From NCBI GenBank assembly GCA_964538085.1, contig CAZIDF010000002.1, forward strand, positions 24,844-88,843: a stretch of DNA of 64,000 nt, read 5' to 3'. The stretch comes from an uncultured Eubacteriales bacterium. GTDB taxonomy: Bacteria; Acidobacteriota; Aminicenantia; Aminicenantales; Aminicenantaceae. The position numbers were made by a program, and so were the translations under genes. This document shows positions 531-9,746 of this stretch, in pieces. The stretch's first letter is position 1. Each line of letters opens with the position of its first letter. The notes below the pieces were generated by a model, which did no database searches, was not told the DNA's origin, and saw only the letters and a list, made by a program, of their open reading frames with translations.

Positions 531-3500
531 ATGAGGGAAGATAATCAAGTTCAGTGCCCCCAGTGCCTCGCTTATAATCCAGAGGACAGCCAGTTTTGTA
601 ACAAATGTGGCTTAACTCTTGAAATAAGCCAGGATACCCTCACGTCTCCGCTCGCTGCAAAGGAAACGGAAAGCGGGTATATATATTTTGCTCCGGGTGA
701 CCAGTTTGCAGATAGATACATGATCATCGAGGAGATCGGCCGGGGTGGCATGGGGGTGGTGTACAAAGCAGAGGATAAGATATTGGGGATTAAAGTGGCC
801 CTGAAGATAATCCATCCTTTGTATTCTTCCAGCGCCAACATGGTGCGGCAGTTCAAAAAAGAAACACTTCTGGCTAGGTCGATATCCCATGAAAACGTGA
901 TCAGAATCCATGATATAGGCGTGAAAGATAATATCAACTATATCTCGATGGACTATATCAAAGGCCAGAATCTGAAAGAATTTATCCGTGTTTCAGGCGC
1001 TCTAGCCACAAAAACAGCTATCACCATTACAAAACAGATTTGTGATGCCATCGATGCAGCTCATCGGAAAGGGGTCATTCACCTGGATCTAAAACCACAA
1101 AACATCATGGTGGATAACAACGGAAATGTATACACCATGGATTTTGGCTTGGCTAGATCTGTTGTGAGTCCTGCAACGAGGTTATCGAAAAAAATTATGG
1201 GGACTCCGGCCTATATGTCCCCTGAGCAGGCAAAAGGAGAAGAGACCGATCATAAGTCCGATATTTATTCGATCGGCATCATCATGTATGAGATGTTCAC
1301 AGGAACATTACCCTACGATGCTGAAACGAGAGATGAGTACATCCAGAAACACATCGAGGAAATACCAAAATCTCCGTCTCAGATTAATCCGCTTATCCCG
1401 AATGCCATCTCAAAAATTATCCTGAAATGCATGGAAAAGGATAAAAACGATAGGTATCAGGCAGTCAAAGAAATTCTCGAAGAAATTCAGCAGCCACTGG
1501 AATACAAGATCAGCTATCCTCAGGAAGAAGCAAAGAGAAGGATTAAGCTTCTGTACATTATTCCATTGGTTTTCCTTATTGCCATCGGAGGATATTTTCT
1601 CCTGAAAAAAAAGCAAGGGGATGAACCGTATTCTCCTATCCTTGAAGAATTGGTGCGTCCATCAGTCGCGGTGTTAAGATTCGAAAACAACACCGGTGAT
1701 GACAGCTTGGCGAACTGGAGCAAGATGCTTCAGAATAGCCTGATCATCGATTTGGCCCAGTCCAAATATATCCGGATTCTGCCTGGTGACAGGCTCGCCC
1801 AAATATTGTTCGATTTAGGTTATCAAGATTCAAAAGAGTATTCATCCGAAGTCCTGGAAAAGATCGCTGAGGGGGGAAATGTTCAATATTTCATTTTAGG
1901 GAGTTATGCGAAAGTCGGGGACAAATTTTTGATTTCTGCCATGATTCGAGAATCGAAAACACAAAGGTTACTTGGAACAGAAAAAGTGGAGGGAACTGGG
2001 GAAGCCAGCTTCATCGACATGGTGGACAATCTGACAAAAAAGATAAAAAAAAGACTGAAGCTCACCCCTGAGGAAATGGCTGACGATATCGATAAAGATA
2101 TAGATAAAATAACGACCCAATCTCCTGAAGCATGGAAACACTATAATGATGGGATCAAGTATCTCCAGGAAAGAAAATTTAAGGAGGGAATCGCTTCATT
2201 GGAAATGGCGGTGGAGATCGATCCAGAGTTTGCCATGGCATATAAAGTTCTGTCCGAGACTAATCTTTCCTTGTATGATTATGAAAAGGGAAATAAATTT
2301 TTGTTGAAGGCCTTAGAATATGTATACAGAGTATCGGACAGAGAGCGTTACCTGATACAGGGCTACGCAGCATGGAGTATCCAAAATGCTTATACACAGG
2401 CGATCGAAAGTTACAAAGACCTGCTAAAAATATATCCAGACGATGAAGAAGGCAACAAGTATCTGGGTATGCTGTACAGGATGTATGAAGAATGGGATCT
2501 CGCGTTGGAATGTTATGAAAAAATTCTCAAAAGCGATAATCCTGTCGAGAGAGCGAATGCCATCGACAATATCGCATTCATTTTCATGTCCAAAGGTTTA
2601 TATGATGAAGCCATCCAGATCATGAAAACCAATCAGCACATTTTTTCCAATCAGTCATGGTTTCATAGATTTATGGGCAATCTATATCTCAGTAAGGGCG
2701 ATTACGACTCTGCGCAAAATGCAGCGGAGAATGCTCTGGAGATCGATCCCGGCTTCAGCGAAAATCACAGGCTGTGTGGAAATATTTGCCTTTTGAAAGA
2801 AGATTTTGTTGCAGCAACAAAATCATATCAGAACATGATCGATAAAGACGATCCTGATGCCAAAGCTTGGGGACTCTATTGGAAGGCCAACCTCTCCTTG
2901 ACCCAAGGCAAATACAAAAAAGCACAAGAAGAAATTTCGTCGGGACTCAGTCTCTCGCGGAATTTAAATCTGGGCTACCAAGAAACCGAATTACTGATAT
3001 TGAAGGAGCATGCTTATTTACAACAGAAAAAGGCCAAGTTAGCCCTTGAAGTCTCTAGCCAGCTTGTGGAATTGACACTAAAAACAGGATTTACGGATGA
3101 TCGGATAATTGCGCTTCACAGTCGAGGTATTTCCTATATCATGCTAAGAAACTTTGCTGAGGCCAAAAATATTGCTGAACAATTGAAAACTCTGATCGAG
3201 GATGTGGGACACCCAATTCAGATGCGTTTTTATCATCATTTGAATGGATACATTTTGTTAGAAGAAGAGAATAAATCAGAAGCAATCAGACAGTTCGAGA
3301 AAGCCTTGACTTTAATGTCTCACCAGGCGTATGTCTTCGACAACCATGCTGTATTTCTCGATGGGCTTGCATACGCATATTTTGAGAATAAGGATTTTAA
3401 AAATGCCGCTGAGCAATATGAGATGATATCCAAATTGAGTGCCGGCAGGATGACTTGGGGCGGTATATATGCAAGAAGTTTTTACATGTTAGGAAAGATT

Positions 3501-3638
3501 TATCAGATGCAAAATCGGACGGAACTGGCGATCCAGTCCTTTCAAAAATTCCTCATATTATGGGAAAATGCTGACCCGGATCTTGTAGAAATAGATGATG
3601 CAAAAAGGAGGTTGATCGAACTCCAGTCGAGATCATGA
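531..3638 (+). CDS. Membrane Ser/Thr (Hanks) protein kinase: zinc ribbon + kinase + TM + TolB-N/FlgO-like + TPR repeats
   Basis: CPQC..CNKC ribbon, GRGGMGVVY, VALK, HLDLKPQN, DFG, GTPAYMSPEQ, TM LLYIIPLVFLIAIGGYFLL, SVAVLRFENNTGD, many TPR helices. Confidence 0.95.
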   Translation: MREDNQVQCPQCLAYNPEDSQFCNKCGLTLEISQDTLTSPLAAKETESGYIYFAPGDQFADRYMIIEEIGRGGMGVVYKAEDKILGIKVALKIIHPLYSSSANMVRQFKKETLLARSISHENVIRIHDIGVKDNINYISMDYIKGQNLKEFIRVSGALATKTAITITKQICDAIDAAHRKGVIHLDLKPQNIMVDNNGNVYTMDFGLARSVVSPATRLSKKIMGTPAYMSPEQAKGEETDHKSDIYSIGIIMYEMFTGTLPYDAETRDEYIQKHIEEIPKSPSQINPLIPNAISKIILKCMEKDKNDRYQAVKEILEEIQQPLEYKISYPQEEAKRRIKLLYIIPLVFLIAIGGYFLLKKKQGDEPYSPILEELVRPSVAVLRFENNTGDDSLANWSKMLQNSLIIDLAQSKYIRILPGDRLAQILFDLGYQDSKEYSSEVLEKIAEGGNVQYFILGSYAKVGDKFLISAMIRESKTQRLLGTEKVEGTGEASFIDMVDNLTKKIKKRLKLTPEEMADDIDKDIDKITTQSPEAWKHYNDGIKYLQERKFKEGIASLEMAVEIDPEFAMAYKVLSETNLSLYDYEKGNKFLLKALEYVYRVSDRERYLIQGYAAWSIQNAYTQAIESYKDLLKIYPDDEEGNKYLGMLYRMYEEWDLALECYEKILKSDNPVERANAIDNIAFIFMSKGLYDEAIQIMKTNQHIFSNQSWFHRFMGNLYLSKGDYDSAQNAAENALEIDPGFSENHRLCGNICLLKEDFVAATKSYQNMIDKDDPDAKAWGLYWKANLSLTQGKYKKAQEEISSGLSLSRNLNLGYQETELLILKEHAYLQQKKAKLALEVSSQLVELTLKTGFTDDRIIALHSRGISYIMLRNFAEAKNIAEQLKTLIEDVGHPIQMRFYHHLNGYILLEEENKSEAIRQFEKALTLMSHQAYVFDNHAVFLDGLAYAYFENKDFKNAAEQYEMISKLSAGRMTWGGIYARSFYMLGKIYQMQNRTELAIQSFQKFLILWENADPDLVEIDDAKRRLIELQSRS

Positions 3639-4720
3639 ATCCAAACGCTCAATTTCTCTCCAAAAAGATTTTTTTTCTATTCTAATCGTCTTTCGTAGTT
3701 CACAGGTCCATGCCGGTATTTTGCCCAAAACTCCTGTGGCATAAGCTGCGCTCACAGGACAGATTGTGCAATCCATTATATACTTGCAACCCACACAATA
3801 TTTATCATCGGAATGACAATGGCTCATCTTTATCTGCTTGTAGTTTGCCACAACTTCAGGATGGATCTTATGATGATTTCTTATATAGTGATCTAGGTGC
3901 CCGAAACAGTATTTTTGAAATTCTTTTGTTCTTTCCTTCCCTTTGAAAAAGTCCGTAAAGAGGTAACAGCCCCATAATCTTCCCTCCGGAGATAGGGCCA
4001 TTTTGCTTTCCCCTCCTGTGCAATAAAGGATTCCCTTTGATGATTCTTTTCTGAAATTTTTTAAGGGAATCCGCCCCGTTCGTTTATAAATGGAGATCAT
4101 GGACTGTTTCAATGCTGTTAGTTCTTCCTCAAGCTTCTCCAGTGATTTTTTATCCCAAGGATGTGTATTGGAAAATGACAGTAAGATATTTTCCACACCC
4201 AGCCCTGCAATAAAATCGATTGATTTGAATAAATACTCGACTGTCTCCGGTATAAACACGCTGTTGGTCTCCAATATGATGTCTGGATTTTTTGTTAAGG
4301 TTTCAATCAGTGCTTCTGTTTGGTCAAAACTTCCCGGCTTCCTTGTGATTTCCTGCGCATAGCCATCAAAACTCAAAAGAATATAAAACTTGTTTTGGGA
4401 TAAAAAATCGAGAGTGGAACTATCTATGAGACTGCCATTTGTTGTCAACGAGTATCGAATCTTCTTGTGAGAGGTCTGTTGGTTTTTTTGAATATGGGAA
4501 ACGGTTTTTTTGATCGTATTATAAGCCAGGAGGGGCTCTCCACCTGTAAAATCAACTGAACAATTATCAAAAAAATAAGGATAAAAAAAATCGATAGTTT
4601 TTTTTATCTGATCTATAAGGAGTCGATTTGTTCCTTTTTTTTTTGGTAGCAGTAAGTGCAATAATAATTGCACTCTTCTGTCAAAAGGATCGTGAACTTA
4701 GAGATCTTCATGGTCTGCAT
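3633..4720 (-). CDS. Radical SAM/SPASM-domain enzyme, frameshifted at an A10 tract (4635-4644)
   Basis: Upstream frame from ATG 4720 (or 4711) reads MQTMKISKFTILLTEECNYYCTYCYQKKK (CxxxCxxC). Downstream frame has FTGGEPLL, LTTNGSL, LSFDG and SPASM-like CTGG..SPEGRLWGC..CVGC..CTICP..C. An A11 or A8 tract would join the frames (~362 aa with A11). Confidence 0.9.
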
Positions 4721-4748
4721 TTTTCAGACAGAATGGTAGAGAAGTTAT

Positions 4749-5060
4749 TTAAACAACAGGGCTACCTGGTCCGTGACAGCCGCCCCCATCTCCATCGGGC
4801 CAAGAGGAATCTTCTTCAACCGTCTCATGCAAATCGGCCATCGCTTCTTCGAGCACAAAAATCTTATGGATAAGATTTTCAATAAACTTATCCATTTTCG
4901 AGAGACATTCACGAAGCATATTTTGTTTATCCGGCGGAAGCTCTTCAATTAATTCCTCAATTATTGACCGGCAATCGTAATGCTTTTTCCATTTGGCATT
5001 CTGCTTTTCACGCGAATAACTAAGTTTCTCTAAAAGCTCTTTTCTTTTTTTTCTTTCCAT
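4749..5060 (-). CDS. Putative RiPP precursor (helical leader, Gly/Pro-rich C-terminal core), 103 aa
   Basis: ATG at 5060 with GGAGGG RBS. MERKKRKELLEKL...EEDSSWPDGDGGGCHGPGSPVV. Stop lies 28 nt upstream of the radical SAM start on the same strand. Confidence 0.65.
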   Translation of the reverse strand: MERKKRKELLEKLSYSREKQNAKWKKHYDCRSIIEELIEELPPDKQNMLRECLSKMDKFIENLIHKIFVLEEAMADLHETVEEDSSWPDGDGGGCHGPGSPVV

Positions 5061-5087
5061 TAAATCCCTCCTTCTAAAATTATTTTT

Positions 5088-5117
5088 ATTATATATGGAA
5101 AATTCAAGTGCAGTCAA
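5088..5117 (-). promoter_or_regulatory. Sigma70-type promoter for the precursor/radical SAM pair
   Basis: Minus strand TTGACT(5117-5112)-18 nt-TATAAT(5093-5088), upstream of the RBS and ATG 5060. Confidence 0.6.
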
Positions 5118-5148
5118 ATACATTTGTACGAACAATCAGACAACGGTA

Positions 5149-7704
5149 TCATTGAAGTATTGTTAGCTCCATTTTGGCCTGTTTGGACTCGAGAATCTCA
5201 GGGTCCGCATCTTTCCAGAGTTCGAGGAATTTCTGATAATTTTCAATGGCTTTTTGAGGCTCCCCTCTCTTTTGATATATCTTGCCCAGCCAATAATAGC
5301 TCCGGGCATAAATATCGCCCAACTGTATGCATCCTGATGTCAGTTCTGTGATTTTTTCAAATTGCTCCGAAGCTTTTTCCTGTTCATTCGTTTTGTTATA
5401 GGCCATGGCCAGAGAGTACAAATAGAAGGCGTGATCGTCCAAGGCTTCATGTTGAAAAGACAAAACAGAAGTGGCTTTTGTGAATTTTTCCAATGCCTCA
5501 GAGTCTCTATTTTTGTATAGTGCTATCATTCCTTCCAAATGATAATAATATCTCATGTATTTTGGGATTTTTAAGCTTTCAAGATAGTTTTTGAGGTATA
5601 TTGCGGTTTTTTCCGCTTCTTCGGCATTATTCATCTGGAGTTGGACGACCCCCCGAAGACTCAAAGCCAAAATTCTATCATGGTGGAAATTGAGCTCCTT
5701 TGCTATGATCTCAGACTGTTCTAACACTTCGAGCGCTTCCTCGAGATGGTTCATTTTGAGATAGACATAGGCGAGCTGATTCAAGAAGGCCACCTTGTCT
5801 GATTGCTTATGATCTTTTTCTGCTTCTTTTATCGCATCTAGAATAGAAAGTTTGCAATCGTAATACCTTCCTTGGGAGATGCGCAAACAGAATAACCATA
5901 ACTTTCCATAAAATCTGGTTATCGGATTTTCACTGTGGATCATCGAGTTGAAATAATTTTCAGCACGGCCGAATTTATCCTGGATCAAATACAAGTGTCC
6001 CAATAGATTTTTTCTGCATTTTCGTAGGAATCCTCCAGGATCGTTTCTGCCCAGCCTTCCAGAAGATAGCGGTCCCTGAGAGAGACTTTATCTTTTATGG
6101 ACAGGGCGGATCTTGCGTATTGCTTGCCTTGGATGTACAACTTCAAGGCTTCGGGTAAATCGGTGAAAATATCCTGTATCTTTTTATCCGAATCGGCGGC
6201 TATTTCAGCGCTTTCGATCTTGAGTTGCGATTTAACCCATTGGGTGATGTCGCCAGCCGTATTGAAAAATGTGATGTCCCCCTTGCCTTCGAACCTTCGG
6301 ATCGCCAGATCTTCCATCATTCCATTCTTAAGCACGACATCGATGCGATAGACATCATCTGCTTTGGTATAATGACCGTACAAGAGATGGTTTGCCCCTC
6401 CACGCATTGTCACTTTGTTTAAATCTTCAGAGGAATAATTTTTTTCATCCACAAGGTTCAGATTTTCGAGAATACTGAATAGACCATCGCTGGGAAGAAC
6501 TTTGATCAGGTTGGATTGCTGGAGATCATATATGATCAAATAGCATAATCCCATTCTCCATTCCTCAAGGCTTTCATCGCCCGTGTGGTTTTCGAAAAAC
6601 ATCACAATCAACGGTATTTTTCCTCCTGCGAAATCAGTAGGAACTACCGGCTTATTTTTCCCGATGATTAAATAAATGCCTACAGCAACCAGTAGAAAAA
6701 CCGGAATAAAGAAGAGAGAGCGCCATTCCTTTTTGGATTTTGTTTGTGGCATATAGGTCTGGGATTCTTCTTCATGGGCATGCAAATCTTCGAGGATATC
6801 CGTGACATTCTCGTACCTTTTGTTCTTGTCTTTTTTCAAACATCTGAGGACGATGTCTTCGAGAAAAGGCGGGATTTGTGGCATGATTTCCGAGGGGCGG
6901 AGGGGCTTTTTATGGATGTGCATATCCACGTAATCGTCCAGATTATCTGCATCGAAAGGCCTCTTTCCCGTGAGCATTTCAAACATAATTATGCCCAACG
7001 AGTAAATATCGGAGCGTGTATCCACCTTTTCACTCTTAGCTTGTTCAGGGGATATGTTAGCGGGCGTCCCTATGAGTTTTTTTTCTTGGACGATCTCTCG
7101 GGCTCCAAGAGACCGCGCCACCCCAAAGTCAATGATATAAACCTTTCCATCACTGTCGATCATGATGTTGCGCGGCTTTGAGCCCTTCACAGATCTGCTT
7201 GCTTATGCTGATAGCAGTCTGGAAACTGAGTGTCCCGGAAGTATGGATTAGCTCTTTGAGATCGTGTCCCTTGATATAGTCCATGGATATGAATTTGATG
7301 TCATCCACATCCCCCAAATCGTGGATCCTTATCACGTTCTCGTGAGAGATCGATCGTGATAACAGCGTCTCTTCCTTGAAACGCTGGATAAACCGGGGAT
7401 TGGAAGAGTAGGCTGACCGGATCATCTTGAGGGCGACCGTGATGTTCAGCTCTTGATCCTTAGCCTTGTAAACCCGGCCCATTCCCCCTCTGCCGATCTC
7501 TTCGATGATCCGGTATCGTGGGCCAAACTTGTCTCCGAGCGAGAATACAAGGTGGTCGTCCAGAATTTTTTCTAAAGGTGGGGTATAAGTCAGGGTATAG
7601 GCTTTATCCATGACATAATGCCCGCACCTGCTGCAAAAACGGCTGTCATCGGCTATGGGCGAATGGCATTGCAGACACCGAAAGGTCTTGGACTCGTTTC
7701 CCAT
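5149..7704 (-). pseudogene. Disrupted paralogous Ser/Thr kinase-TM-TPR gene in three fragments (7704-7150, 7190-5985, 6003-5149)
   Basis: Same architecture as 531-3638 (CLQC..CSRC, GRGGMGRVY, VALK, DFG, TM, FFENHTGD, C-terminal FLELWKDADP). The catalytic-loop segment between KAA and KPRN is missing with a frameshift at ~7175, there is an in-frame TPR loss at ~6115, and a large TPR deletion plus frameshift at ~6003. Confidence 0.88.
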
Positions 7705-7778
7705 CGATATTATATATATAAACAAATATAAACAAAGATGATCTAAGTCAATCTCTCTCGATAGGCTAAAATTTTCCC

Positions 7779-9746
7779 CTATTCTTCTTTTTTGGGATAG
7801 ATCCGGGCAACCCAACCTCCACCCGGTGCAAGCTCGATCTTCAGTTTGTCTCTAGCCGAGAAGGAGATGACCTCTTTTTTGTAGTCACTGCTATAGCGCC
7901 GGGCATTTATGCCATCCTTGAGTATCTCTGCTCCGAATTCCCCTTCAGGTAAAAAGGACATATCGACTTCGAGCTCACGGGCTGTCCAGTCTGTCATCGC
8001 TCCCACATACCATTCCTCTCCAGATTTCCGTGCGATCAGGATGTAGTCAGCCACTTGGGCATCCAAAACATGCGTTTCATCCCATACGGTGGGCACCTTG
8101 GACAAAAATTCCAGGCATTCCTTTTCCCTAAGATAGTTGGATGGACTGTCAGCCAGCATCTGCAGAGGGCTTTCGTAAACGACATACATAGCCAGCTGAT
8201 GGCATCGGGTTCCCATGCTCATCGGCCGGGTGAAAATAACCTGAAAATTTTTCTCCTGCGCATTGACCATGGCACCGGGTGTGTAATCCATCGGACCGGC
8301 GAGCATCCGGATAAAAGGGAGGGTGACGTTATGTTCCGGGGTGACGTTTTTCGACCACTTGTTGTGTTCCAGCCCGAGAACACCCTCGCGCGTCAGCACA
8401 TTGGGATAGGCCCTTCTCAGCCCAGTGGGTTTGTACGCTCCATGAAAATCGACAAACAAGTGCCTCTTTGCCGCTTCTTTGGCGATCTTGTGATAATAGT
8501 TCACCATCCACTGGTCGTCCCTCTGCATGAAATCCACTTTGATCCCCTTCACGCCCCACTTTTCGAATTGGCCCAATGCTTCGTGAAGCTGGTCGTCCAA
8601 GGTTTTCCACACAACCCAGAGGATGATGCCGACATTTTTTTCTCGAGCATACTGGATGATCTCTTCGATGTTCATATCTGGATTTATGTCGAAAAGATCT
8701 CCCAACACATACCAGCCTTCATCCAAGATGACATATTCGATCCCGTGGGCTGAGGCAAAATCTATGTAATATTTGTAGGTGTCGGTATTGACCCCAGCTT
8801 CAAAATCCACTCCGTAGATATTGTTAGCATTCCACCAGTCCCAGGCCACTTTACCGGGTTTGATCCAATCGGTGTCTTGCAGTTGGAGAGGCTTGGCCAA
8901 TTTGTAGACCAGTTGATTTTCCAGAAGATCCCCGTCTTTTTCTGCAATCACGATCGCACGCCAGGGGAAGGTTCTCCGTCCTTCTGTTCGGGCTATGTGG
9001 TCATCCCGTTTGACGACCCGCACATCCCGGTCGCGCGTTTGCCTCTCCTCCAAAGACACCGCCGGAAAGATCCCCCTGAGAGTTGTGCTCTCCCTGCCGC
9101 AGAAATACAGTCCCGCATAGTCTTCAAGGTCTGCTTCTGTGATGACAACTTTGGGTCCATCTTTGATGTCGATAAGAACCGGGGGATAGCCCATTTTGTA
9201 TCGGGAGATCTGCGAGAGCGGCAGATATTCGTACAATCTTTCCTGGTGAGTGAAAAAACTCTCTTCTGCCGCGAAATAAACGTTATGATCTTCTGCAAAA
9301 TTATAGGTGACTTCCTCTTCGAGGATATCGATGGTCCTATCGAATTCCGTTTGAAATCGATAGGCCACGCCTTCATCATAAACACGAAAGATGAGATCGA
9401 AGTTATTTTTGAACTTCAGGATCATCTCATTGTATCTGTCGGTTATCACAGCGCTTTTCACGCGGATAACCGGCCGAATTTCCTGATCGGTGGACTGTTG
9501 AAAGGCATCTTCGAGGACAGGTTGAAATCCCAATTTTCCTATGTCTTTCACGGTCATCGAGATCGGAGATGGTTCGAGAATCTTTTGCGACCCATGATAA
9601 ACAGAATATTGAATTTGTCCATCTATCTTGATATCGACCTTGATTTTTTTATCAGGAGAAAAAATTTCGTATTCGTTGGCTGAAAGAGCCGGCCGCATGA
9701 AAATGGCAAACAGAAAAAATCCGATGAAGTATATTCTCCATTTCAT
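7779..9746 (-). CDS. Glycoside hydrolase family 97 (alpha-glucosidase/galactosidase), secreted
   Basis: Signal peptide, WIKPGKVAWDWW, YIDFA, LDEGW, GIKVDF, FHG, EGV, GPMDYTPG. Confidence 0.93.
   Translation of the reverse strand: MKWRIYFIGFFLFAIFMRPALSANEYEIFSPDKKIKVDIKIDGQIQYSVYHGSQKILEPSPISMTVKDIGKLGFQPVLEDAFQQSTDQEIRPVIRVKSAVITDRYNEMILKFKNNFDLIFRVYDEGVAYRFQTEFDRTIDILEEEVTYNFAEDHNVYFAAEESFFTHQERLYEYLPLSQISRYKMGYPPVLIDIKDGPKVVITEADLEDYAGLYFCGRESTTLRGIFPAVSLEERQTRDRDVRVVKRDDHIARTEGRRTFPWRAIVIAEKDGDLLENQLVYKLAKPLQLQDTDWIKPGKVAWDWWNANNIYGVDFEAGVNTDTYKYYIDFASAHGIEYVILDEGWYVLGDLFDINPDMNIEEIIQYAREKNVGIILWVVWKTLDDQLHEALGQFEKWGVKGIKVDFMQRDDQWMVNYYHKIAKEAAKRHLFVDFHGAYKPTGLRRAYPNVLTREGVLGLEHNKWSKNVTPEHNVTLPFIRMLAGPMDYTPGAMVNAQEKNFQVIFTRPMSMGTRCHQLAMYVVYESPLQMLADSPSNYLREKECLEFLSKVPTVWDETHVLDAQVADYILIARKSGEEWYVGAMTDWTARELEVDMSFLPEGEFGAEILKDGINARRYSSDYKKEVISFSARDKLKIELAPGGGWVARIYPKKEE

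Follow-up and report, generated by a model that had tools for sequence, protein, structure and literature searches.

The locus of interest lies in a 64,000-nucleotide stretch of DNA from an uncultured Eubacteriales bacterium (GenBank assembly GCA_964538085.1, contig CAZIDF010000002.1, positions 24,844–88,843), referred to here as the window. On its minus strand, a two-gene unit encodes a 103-aa protein and, starting 28 nt beyond the stop codon of the first gene, a radical S-adenosylmethionine (SAM) enzyme. An earlier note on this DNA had proposed, from the letters alone, that the two genes encode the precursor and the maturase of a new kind of RiPP, a peptide that is synthesized ribosomally and modified post-translationally. 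The elements on which that proposal was built (promoter, ribosome binding site, 103-aa gene, acidic linker, Gly/Pro-rich tail) were all located on the minus strand (Table 1). The promoter is the top-scoring promoter-like site within positions 3400–8000, a region that holds 11 such sites where 10.8 are expected from shuffled sequences. A terminator-like hairpin at 4781..4760 was discarded, its stability being no better than that of shuffles (z 0.27). Two features of the locus were missed in the earlier note: a conserved frameshift in the family of enzyme genes, and a set of linked sensor genes.

Table 1. The cassette and its neighbours, with positions counted from the first nucleotide of the window.
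Feature	Position	Strand	Remarks
Sigma-70-like promoter TTGACT-18-TATAAT	5117..5088	-	Upstream of small gene; 11/12 matches
Shine-Dalgarno sequence AAGGAGGG	5073..5066	-	5 nt ahead of gene 1 ATG; strong; read directly
Gene 1, 103-aa candidate precursor	5060..4749 (stop included)	-	Leader 1–84 helical, tail 85–103 disordered
Leader region with C30	5012-4970	-	Residues about 17–31 of small protein
Putative core W87–V103	4802..4752	-	Cys95 codon 4778..4776
Radical SAM gene, zero-frame start	4720..4613	-	35 codons + stop; CxxxCxxC at 4672..4649
A10 run	4644..4635	-	Zero frame CAA AAA AAA AAG, holding heptamer A_AAA_AAG
Radical SAM/SPASM-like body	4634..3633	-	-1 frame, 333 codons + stop; 20/20 family-invariant columns present
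Convergent kinase-TPR gene	531..3638	+	Zn-ribbon, Ser/Thr kinase, transmembrane helix 340–358, predicted extracytoplasmic TPR region
Kinase-TPR paralogue, pseudogene	7815..5149	-	Upstream, co-directional; three open reading frames from two deletions

The 103-aa protein closes with an acidic linker followed by the Gly/Pro tail. It matches no NCBIfam or Pfam family at E up to 1, the Nif11 and NHLP leader models included, which bears out the earlier impression that its leader resembles neither; matches in the ESM Atlas are generic long-helix look-alikes only. A search of 5.8 billion protein clusters returned three proteins that resemble it, at 81, 68 and 52% identity. Since all three keep the tail, the gene is more than a chance open reading frame (ORF): (W/Y)P(D/N)GDGGGC(H/K)G(R)PGSP is retained in 4/4 relatives (the window protein included), Cys95 is invariant, and every member terminates 8–9 residues past the Cys. 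Among the four, W87 is Tyr in one and H96 is Lys in one, P0004; a single Asp follows the Cys only in P0003. AlphaFold2, working from the 4-row alignment, places helices at residues 2–12, 17–27, 31–39 and 43–84 and leaves the tail, residues 85–103, disordered (mean pLDDT 67.9, with helices reaching 91), in agreement with the long helical leader that had been claimed.

The enzyme carries CxxxCxxC at residues 17–24 of its zero-frame ORF, with 16 residues before the first Cys. Its designation as a radical SAM-SPASM maturase is secure in its first half and less so in its second: Pfam Radical_SAM (PF04055) matches the body with 34.6 bits (cut-off 29.5), while the SPASM assignment is based on the Cys pattern (invariant C218, C236, C293, C296, C302, C305 and C324, all present in the body) and on an alignment to PapB. 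PapB, whose cut-off is 340 bits, is the top NCBIfam model, matched at 103 bits by the body and at 25.1 bits by the start ORF; residues 21–301 of the body align to profile positions 36–311 of 330, and the start ORF to positions 1–26. Other thioether maturases follow in the ranking, and no curated NCBIfam model captures the enzyme family. A family profile search gave 5wgg_A as the nearest solved chain (E 1.6e-31). This structure, whose PDB title reads only 'Radical SAM domain protein', we take to be CteB, the SCIFF/thermocellin thioether maturase, with ~95 N-terminal residues that presumably form a RiPP recognition element (RRE). Position 4 of the family profile falls on residue 97 in 5wgg_A and on residue 109 in 8vpo_A; because the alignment begins so far into 5wgg_A, the family is without the N-terminal domain of that enzyme. 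The window enzyme is an RRE-less, PapB/CteB-like radical SAM maturase, and the short stretch ahead of CxxxCxxC reported earlier stands. A complex prediction with the start ORF (residues 1–30), the body (14–346), the precursor and three Fe-S clusters scored 0.02 and 0.01 against a mark of 0.32, and was counted neither way.

The maturase had previously been handled as a single, frame-repaired gene. The gene is indeed there, but the repair hid a break at the A10 run: 35 codons in, the zero frame meets a stop, and the body continues in the -1 frame, which can be reached by one extra A or by a -1 slip; the product would then be 362 aa long, and intact relatives measure ~355–365 aa. An assembly error was rejected as the source of the break on two grounds. 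Firstly, contigs from 4/4 salt-marsh metagenome runs span the A10 run with 0 differences and 0 gaps (depth about 5–7; two of the four runs may be the source of the window). Secondly, 119 of the 280 A/T runs of at least 9 in the window's own genome (G000, 4.39 Mb) sit in frame inside long ORFs, so that the assembly is not riddled with homopolymer errors.

The enzyme belongs to a sizeable family. An exhaustive search yielded 5923 representatives at E ≤0.001, of which 145 reach E ≤1e-30, and a larger collection contained at least 313 clusters at E ≤1e-60. Family records are mostly unnamed, 'AslB-like' (JGI) or 'radical SAM protein', and the organism, where stated, is Candidatus Aminicenantes. With the full-length query, 136 of 339 Aminicenantia genomes carry a match. 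Among 60 relatives of the window's genome, 27 have one; that genome itself holds a second, intact maturase copy on contig C3. The pair is part of a large and undescribed family that centres on Aminicenantes. A literature search, which did not extend to supplements (such as that of PMC10288494), found no report on Aminicenantes radical SAM RiPPs. Many metagenome-assembled genomes that bear the cassette are labelled 'uncultured Eubacteriales', 'Bathyarchaeia' or 'Omnitrophota', and are probably mislabelled or mis-binned.

Pairing of the small gene with the maturase was surveyed in 94 unique family loci, 89 of which have sufficient upstream DNA. At 81 of these 89, a same-strand ORF of 45–160 aa ends ≤250 nt from the maturase. 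A Cys occurs within the last 25 aa of 66/81 small ORFs, as opposed to 49/164 control windows taken from those same ORFs. The small ORF was picked by a fixed 'longest ORF' rule, and at most loci failing the Cys-tail rule a neighbouring ORF had been picked while a Cys-tailed small gene adjoins; eight loci (L012, L055, L066, L076, L084, L085, L132 and L147) have none. The small protein and maturase relatives P0004/P0156 and P0002/P0005 come from single contigs of matching size (8825 and 9222 nt), which suggests that the pairing is kept in the window's close relatives. The pairing of small protein and maturase is conserved family-wide and, with no curated model fitting, the earlier claim of a precursor–maturase unit of a new family is supported. 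The genes co-occur as that claim supposed; what the tails share across the family is the Cys and the Gly/Pro stretch only.

About 80 precursors display a recurring plan: a helical front, a single Cys, then Gly/Pro, often with [S/K/R]-P-[I/V]. Apart from this Cys tail, the small proteins are hypervariable. Several contain tandem cores—four in L083, at least three in L052, two each in L075 and L073—and the repeat unit of L083 is similar to the window tail past its Cys. RiPP precursors that hold several core peptides typically have such tandem cores. Together, the recurring Cys and Gly/Pro tails and the tandem cores suggest that the reactive part consists of the Cys and what follows it. The tandem unit reads Cys-Gly-x-Pro-[IV], is present in 2–4 copies (L083, L052, L075, L073 and L086), and delimits the likely core peptide.

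We propose that the 103-aa protein is the substrate, with a helical leader of ~84 residues and a flexible, 19-residue Gly/Pro core bearing one reactive Cys, C95. The maturase would most probably join C95 to a carbon atom in a residue slightly further C-terminal, within H-G-P-G-S-P-V-V, giving one small thioether macrocycle. A different chemistry had been suggested earlier, namely that W-P-D and H-G-P carry aromatic-X-X cyclophanes, that a reversed thioether joins Cys to Asp in D-G-G-G-C, or both. Most of the four small-protein relatives retain W/Y87, D89 and D91, and there are weak matches to cyclophane maturases; these matches (XyeB, GrrM, FxsB, YhhB and AmcB) are partial, at 25.3–41.7 bits against cut-offs of 310–450. 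The Lys in place of H96 in P0004 does not fit an aromatic-X-X link at H-G-P, and neither an aromatic-X-X motif nor an acidic residue before the Cys is kept across the roughly 80 precursors. According to PMC12373016, PapB links Cys to an Asp or Glu on the C-terminal side of the Cys, in CxxxD/E units, so that D-G-G-G-C is not a PapB-type motif. The crosslinks suggested earlier are not supported, and we consider them very improbable.

With no RRE in the family enzymes, leader recognition would have to work otherwise. In addition to C95, the window protein has a second conserved Cys at position 30, and its family also C52; C30 opens an amphipathic helix that often ends in Pro. This combination (Cys, amphipathic helix, Pro) occurs in the window protein and in 27 of 83 precursors, as compared with 0.24 in shuffles, a count that serves as a lead only, the motif having been composed after the sequences were viewed and most matches being kin. 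The element may be a recognition site for the RRE-less enzyme. A comparable second-Cys leader element is seen in precursors of Type H and of the L070/L077/L078 type.

The frame break in the window has a counterpart elsewhere in the family. In 32 loci, from 32 species-level genomes in families f1, f3, f4, f5 and f9, the maturase gene is split by a -1 shift at one and the same codon position, between F-F and L-P. The split lies at a T run: T9 in 27 loci, and T8 in five, where a single T closes the codon before it. In-frame reading would in every case take one more T. T_TTT_TTT always stands in the zero frame, which stops 3–11 codons past the run; the -1 frame remains open for 299–343 codons (31/31). 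For the downstream frame, the ratio of non-synonymous to synonymous substitution rates (dN/dS) is 0.11–0.54 in 48/48 pairs with unsaturated dS. A run of at least nine Ts at the split site is found in 0/55 single-frame loci. In a quick maximum-likelihood tree, the T-run genes, six in-frame relatives and L140 form a clade of 38 rows (SH-aLRT 95). The in-frame relatives (6/37 rows) include the contig C3 copy from the window's own genome; the tree calls for at least seven state changes, with many of its forks unresolved. This placement indicates that the split state is old and maintained, and is now and then replaced by ordinary decoding. The clade combines an A/T run of at least 9 at the ORF junction, conservation of that junction in diverged homologues, and selection on the downstream frame; on these comparative grounds, programmed slippage in the T-run clade appears close to established. 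'In-frame TAA' flags raised in four homologues proved to be merely their stop codons.

Four further loci deserve mention. L143 (G000:C3:8785-15777), a second cassette of the window's own genome and of the other type, consists of a 640-aa helix-turn-helix (HTH)-like/transmembrane/TPR gene, a 68-aa precursor and an intact maturase (about 2935–4011), with an in-frame T8 where L017, of the same genus, has a frameshifting T9. L140 (G281:C394) has T10 at I-F-F/Y-G-G-E-P and needs one base fewer, and in L142 (G321:C5) the maturase is broken at an A7 past the cluster motif; these two breaks, which shift the frame in the opposite direction to that of the T-run clade, may be ordinary lesions or further slippage sites. 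In the single-contig genome that holds L148 (G071:C1:1161126-1162654), similarity of a T-run-type maturase is lost past ~256 residues, leaving no SPASM part. This is probably a genuinely dead copy.

The window maturase falls outside the T-run clade, and its break lies at another site, in Lys codons just past the cluster motif. Both heptamers, A_AAA_AAG in the window and T_TTT_TTT in the T-run clade, are in the zero frame. At the protein level, the window's three closest relatives showing an N-terminus, P0156 (75% identity), P0157 (69%) and the more distant P0251, begin with an out-of-frame reading of the Cys-motif region, from which we infer that the A-run frame arrangement is common to them and the window. 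Among family proteins with the GGEP motif, 46/229 are without CxxxCxxC and 183 have it; another 40 are fragments. None of 56 metagenome matches to the exact A10 context lies in a radical SAM gene, so the DNA evidence for the A10 site comes from the window alone. Past the A run, no strong RNA structure was detected, weak A-U pairing only (z -2.28); the want of a convincing stimulatory structure favours slippage by the polymerase over slippage by the ribosome. A literature search found no report joining transcriptional slippage, or recoding of this kind, with a RiPP maturase.

Might the window maturase simply be dead, through a replication slip in the A run, in a cassette that is decaying along with the adjacent kinase paralogue? 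That paralogue (7815..5149) is a pseudogene, its frame broken by two deletions, neither of them at a homopolymer. Positions 1–113 and 125–257 of the Pkinase profile are represented in its pieces, one deletion having removed ~114–124 and the other ~9 residues of the TPR part. The maturase ORF of the closest relative, P0005, is only 247 aa long and hence broken again, and the missing further copies of the A10 context (0/56) also fit a dead gene. Such a gene sits poorly with the 333 codons that remain open past the break with 20/20 family-invariant columns kept, with the same frame arrangement and full-length bodies in P0156 and P0157, and with the like break that a sister clade maintains under purifying selection in 32 species. 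We regard a dead gene as unlikely; the comparison suggests that programmed slippage is the likelier explanation of the window break than decay. In the same-genus genome G001 (locus L014), an intact TPR ORF stands in place of the 7815..5149 pseudogene.

The homopolymers could also be phase-variation switches, set off (A10/T9) or on (A11/T10) by replication slippage. In-frame relatives do occur within the T-run clade, with the state changes counted above, and A/T runs of 9–10 are described as hypermutable in PMC1088944. Against such a switch, 32/32 T-run loci are at the off length with none at T10, the runs of the in-frame relatives are shorter or interrupted (T ≤8) and do not show one extra T, and A10 is what the contigs of all four salt-marsh runs hold, if at the modest depth given above. 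We consider phase variation improbable. Under programmed slippage, the full-length enzyme would arise only through one surplus A, inserted by RNA polymerase at the A10 run, or through a -1 slip of the ribosome on A_AAA_AAG, and this dependence would keep the enzyme scarce relative to its well-translated precursor.

A sensor-type neighbour adjoins the cassette at 55 of 70 loci. At 33 of the 70, the window among them, a kinase-TPR gene of about 960–1035 aa lies tail to tail with the maturase (in one further locus, the convergent match is weak), and encodes, in order, a Zn-ribbon, a Ser/Thr kinase, one transmembrane helix, a CsgG-like stretch and TPR repeats. At 19/70, which make up the T-run clade, the gene immediately upstream specifies a protein of ~600 aa with an HTH-like N-terminus (a reading of the sequence by eye, with no family search behind it), one transmembrane helix and TPR repeats. 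Two further loci have a kinase-type gene in the other orientation, and 15/70 are without a sensor gene, some owing to short flanks. For both the kinase and the HTH-like type, prediction puts the TPR part outside the cytoplasm. The window's genome contains about 34 kinase-domain places, about 17 with this sensor architecture; at these numbers, chance adjacency to the cassette is unlikely. Most such kinases in that genome are without a cassette. In the window, the stop codons of maturase and kinase overlap tail to tail by 6 nt (3633-3638), leaving no room for a terminator between the two genes; this tight convergent layout is found again in many family loci.

Alternatively, the small protein could escape cleavage and persist as a stable helical protein (an adaptor of the kinase or of the regulator, for instance), with its C-terminal Cys modified at the protein level, either to a thioether as in CrpA/CrpC or to formylglycine as by an anaerobic sulfatase-maturating enzyme (anSME). 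The N-terminal part is long and foldable, with the confident helices described above, no protease or exporter gene lies nearby, JGI names the enzymes AslB-like, and radical SAM/SPASM enzymes do modify whole proteins (PMC13692751). The anSME models match at no more than 39–44 bits against cut-offs of 349–441 and cover residues 36–126 only. Anaerobic sulfatase maturases target the motif C/S-x-P/A-x-R; it is absent from the window tail, which reads C-H-G-P-G. Multi-core precursors (L083, L052, L075 and L073), typical of released peptides, and leaders that are hypervariable between loci likewise speak against a stable protein, which we judge distinctly unlikely.

The reading that we prefer is a RiPP-type cassette consisting of (i) a Cys-tailed substrate, (ii) an RRE-less maturase, (iii) slip-dependent synthesis of that maturase, and (iv) a link to envelope sensors; we think it somewhat likelier to be right than wrong. 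The product, if exported, may act in envelope signalling or be controlled by it, as the sensor-gene link hints. Several observations weigh against this reading. The PapB score of 103 bits is far under its cut-off of 340, the SPASM part has no Pfam match at E up to 1, and the window tail offers no acidic acceptor past the Cys. The small-protein family has only four members among the 5.8 billion clusters, and no relative of the 103-aa protein was found in the 60 related genomes or in scans of metagenome contigs and genome contigs. No protease or exporter gene is conserved near the family loci. To these are added the points raised above with regard to the break: the decayed kinase paralogue, the short ORF of P0005, the solitary A10 context and the weak RNA structure.

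Taken further, the RiPP-type cassettes might constitute private peptide-signalling circuits in Aminicenantes: a hypervariable, pherotype-like precursor would be cyclized at its single Cys by the RRE-less enzyme, and the product would be detected by the neighbouring single-pass Ser/Thr kinase or ToxR-like HTH regulator through its outward-facing TPR domain, with maturase output throttled by the conserved A10/T9 slip. We put this forward as a doubtful extension.

If our reading is correct, the family would supply thioether peptides with a single Cys from a phylum in which no producer has been cultured, and would show homopolymer recoding, in the gene of a biosynthetic enzyme, that has been conserved through at least five families of bacteria. 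Frameshifted genes of this kind would be miscalled as truncated or dead by genome-mining pipelines. The link to TPR sensors would provide a testable lead on what abundant sensors of sediment bacteria detect.

Parts of the proposed arrangement have parallels in known systems. In RRNPP quorum sensing and in the streptide radical SAM system, a small peptide gene lies next to a TPR-containing signal transducer, and peptide cores are hypervariable as pherotypes, much like the precursors of the family described here. The family differs in that its neighbours are membrane kinases or HTH proteins with TPR parts predicted outside the cell, the link being drawn from synteny. The enzyme that we take to be CteB (5WGG) shares with the family a radical SAM core and an auxiliary-cluster region, but has ~95 extra N-terminal residues, presumably an RRE, where the family starts at the radical SAM core.

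PapB, which acts on PapA (NF047865; PMC12373016, PMC9413430), is the nearest in outline: it is a small radical SAM/SPASM enzyme, is the top model over near full length, and has a substrate in which Cys lies in a short C-terminal motif. PapB can also ring-close onto the C-terminal residue. PapA contains six CxxxD/E units, whereas the window substrate has one Cys and lacks a conserved acidic acceptor; the two leaders show no relationship, and the window gene is frameshifted and linked to a sensor-kinase gene. CrpC of Methanococcus voltae is a SPASM enzyme that, according to PMC13692751, puts ranthionine links on a neighbouring larger-than-peptide substrate, CrpA. CrpA is Cys-rich and CrpC has a predicted RRE, in contrast to the single-Cys tail and RRE-less enzyme of the window.

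For the frame break, several precedents have been described. In Shigella flexneri mxiE, one base added at a run of Us fuses two ORFs, and Thermus thermophilus dnaX (A9) is a second case of transcriptional slippage (PMC1088944), while Escherichia coli dnaX undergoes a -1 ribosomal frameshift on A_AAA_AAG (PMC1088944; PMC1851650). The present case differs from these in concerning a peptide maturase, with two different sites in one enzyme family, and in having no stimulatory structure at the window A run. In all of them, as is proposed for the window, a longer functional product needs one non-templated base on an A/T run of 9–10 nt or a -1 slip; in mxiE, as would be the case here, two overlapping ORFs are fused, and the heptamer of E. 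coli dnaX is identical to that of the window.

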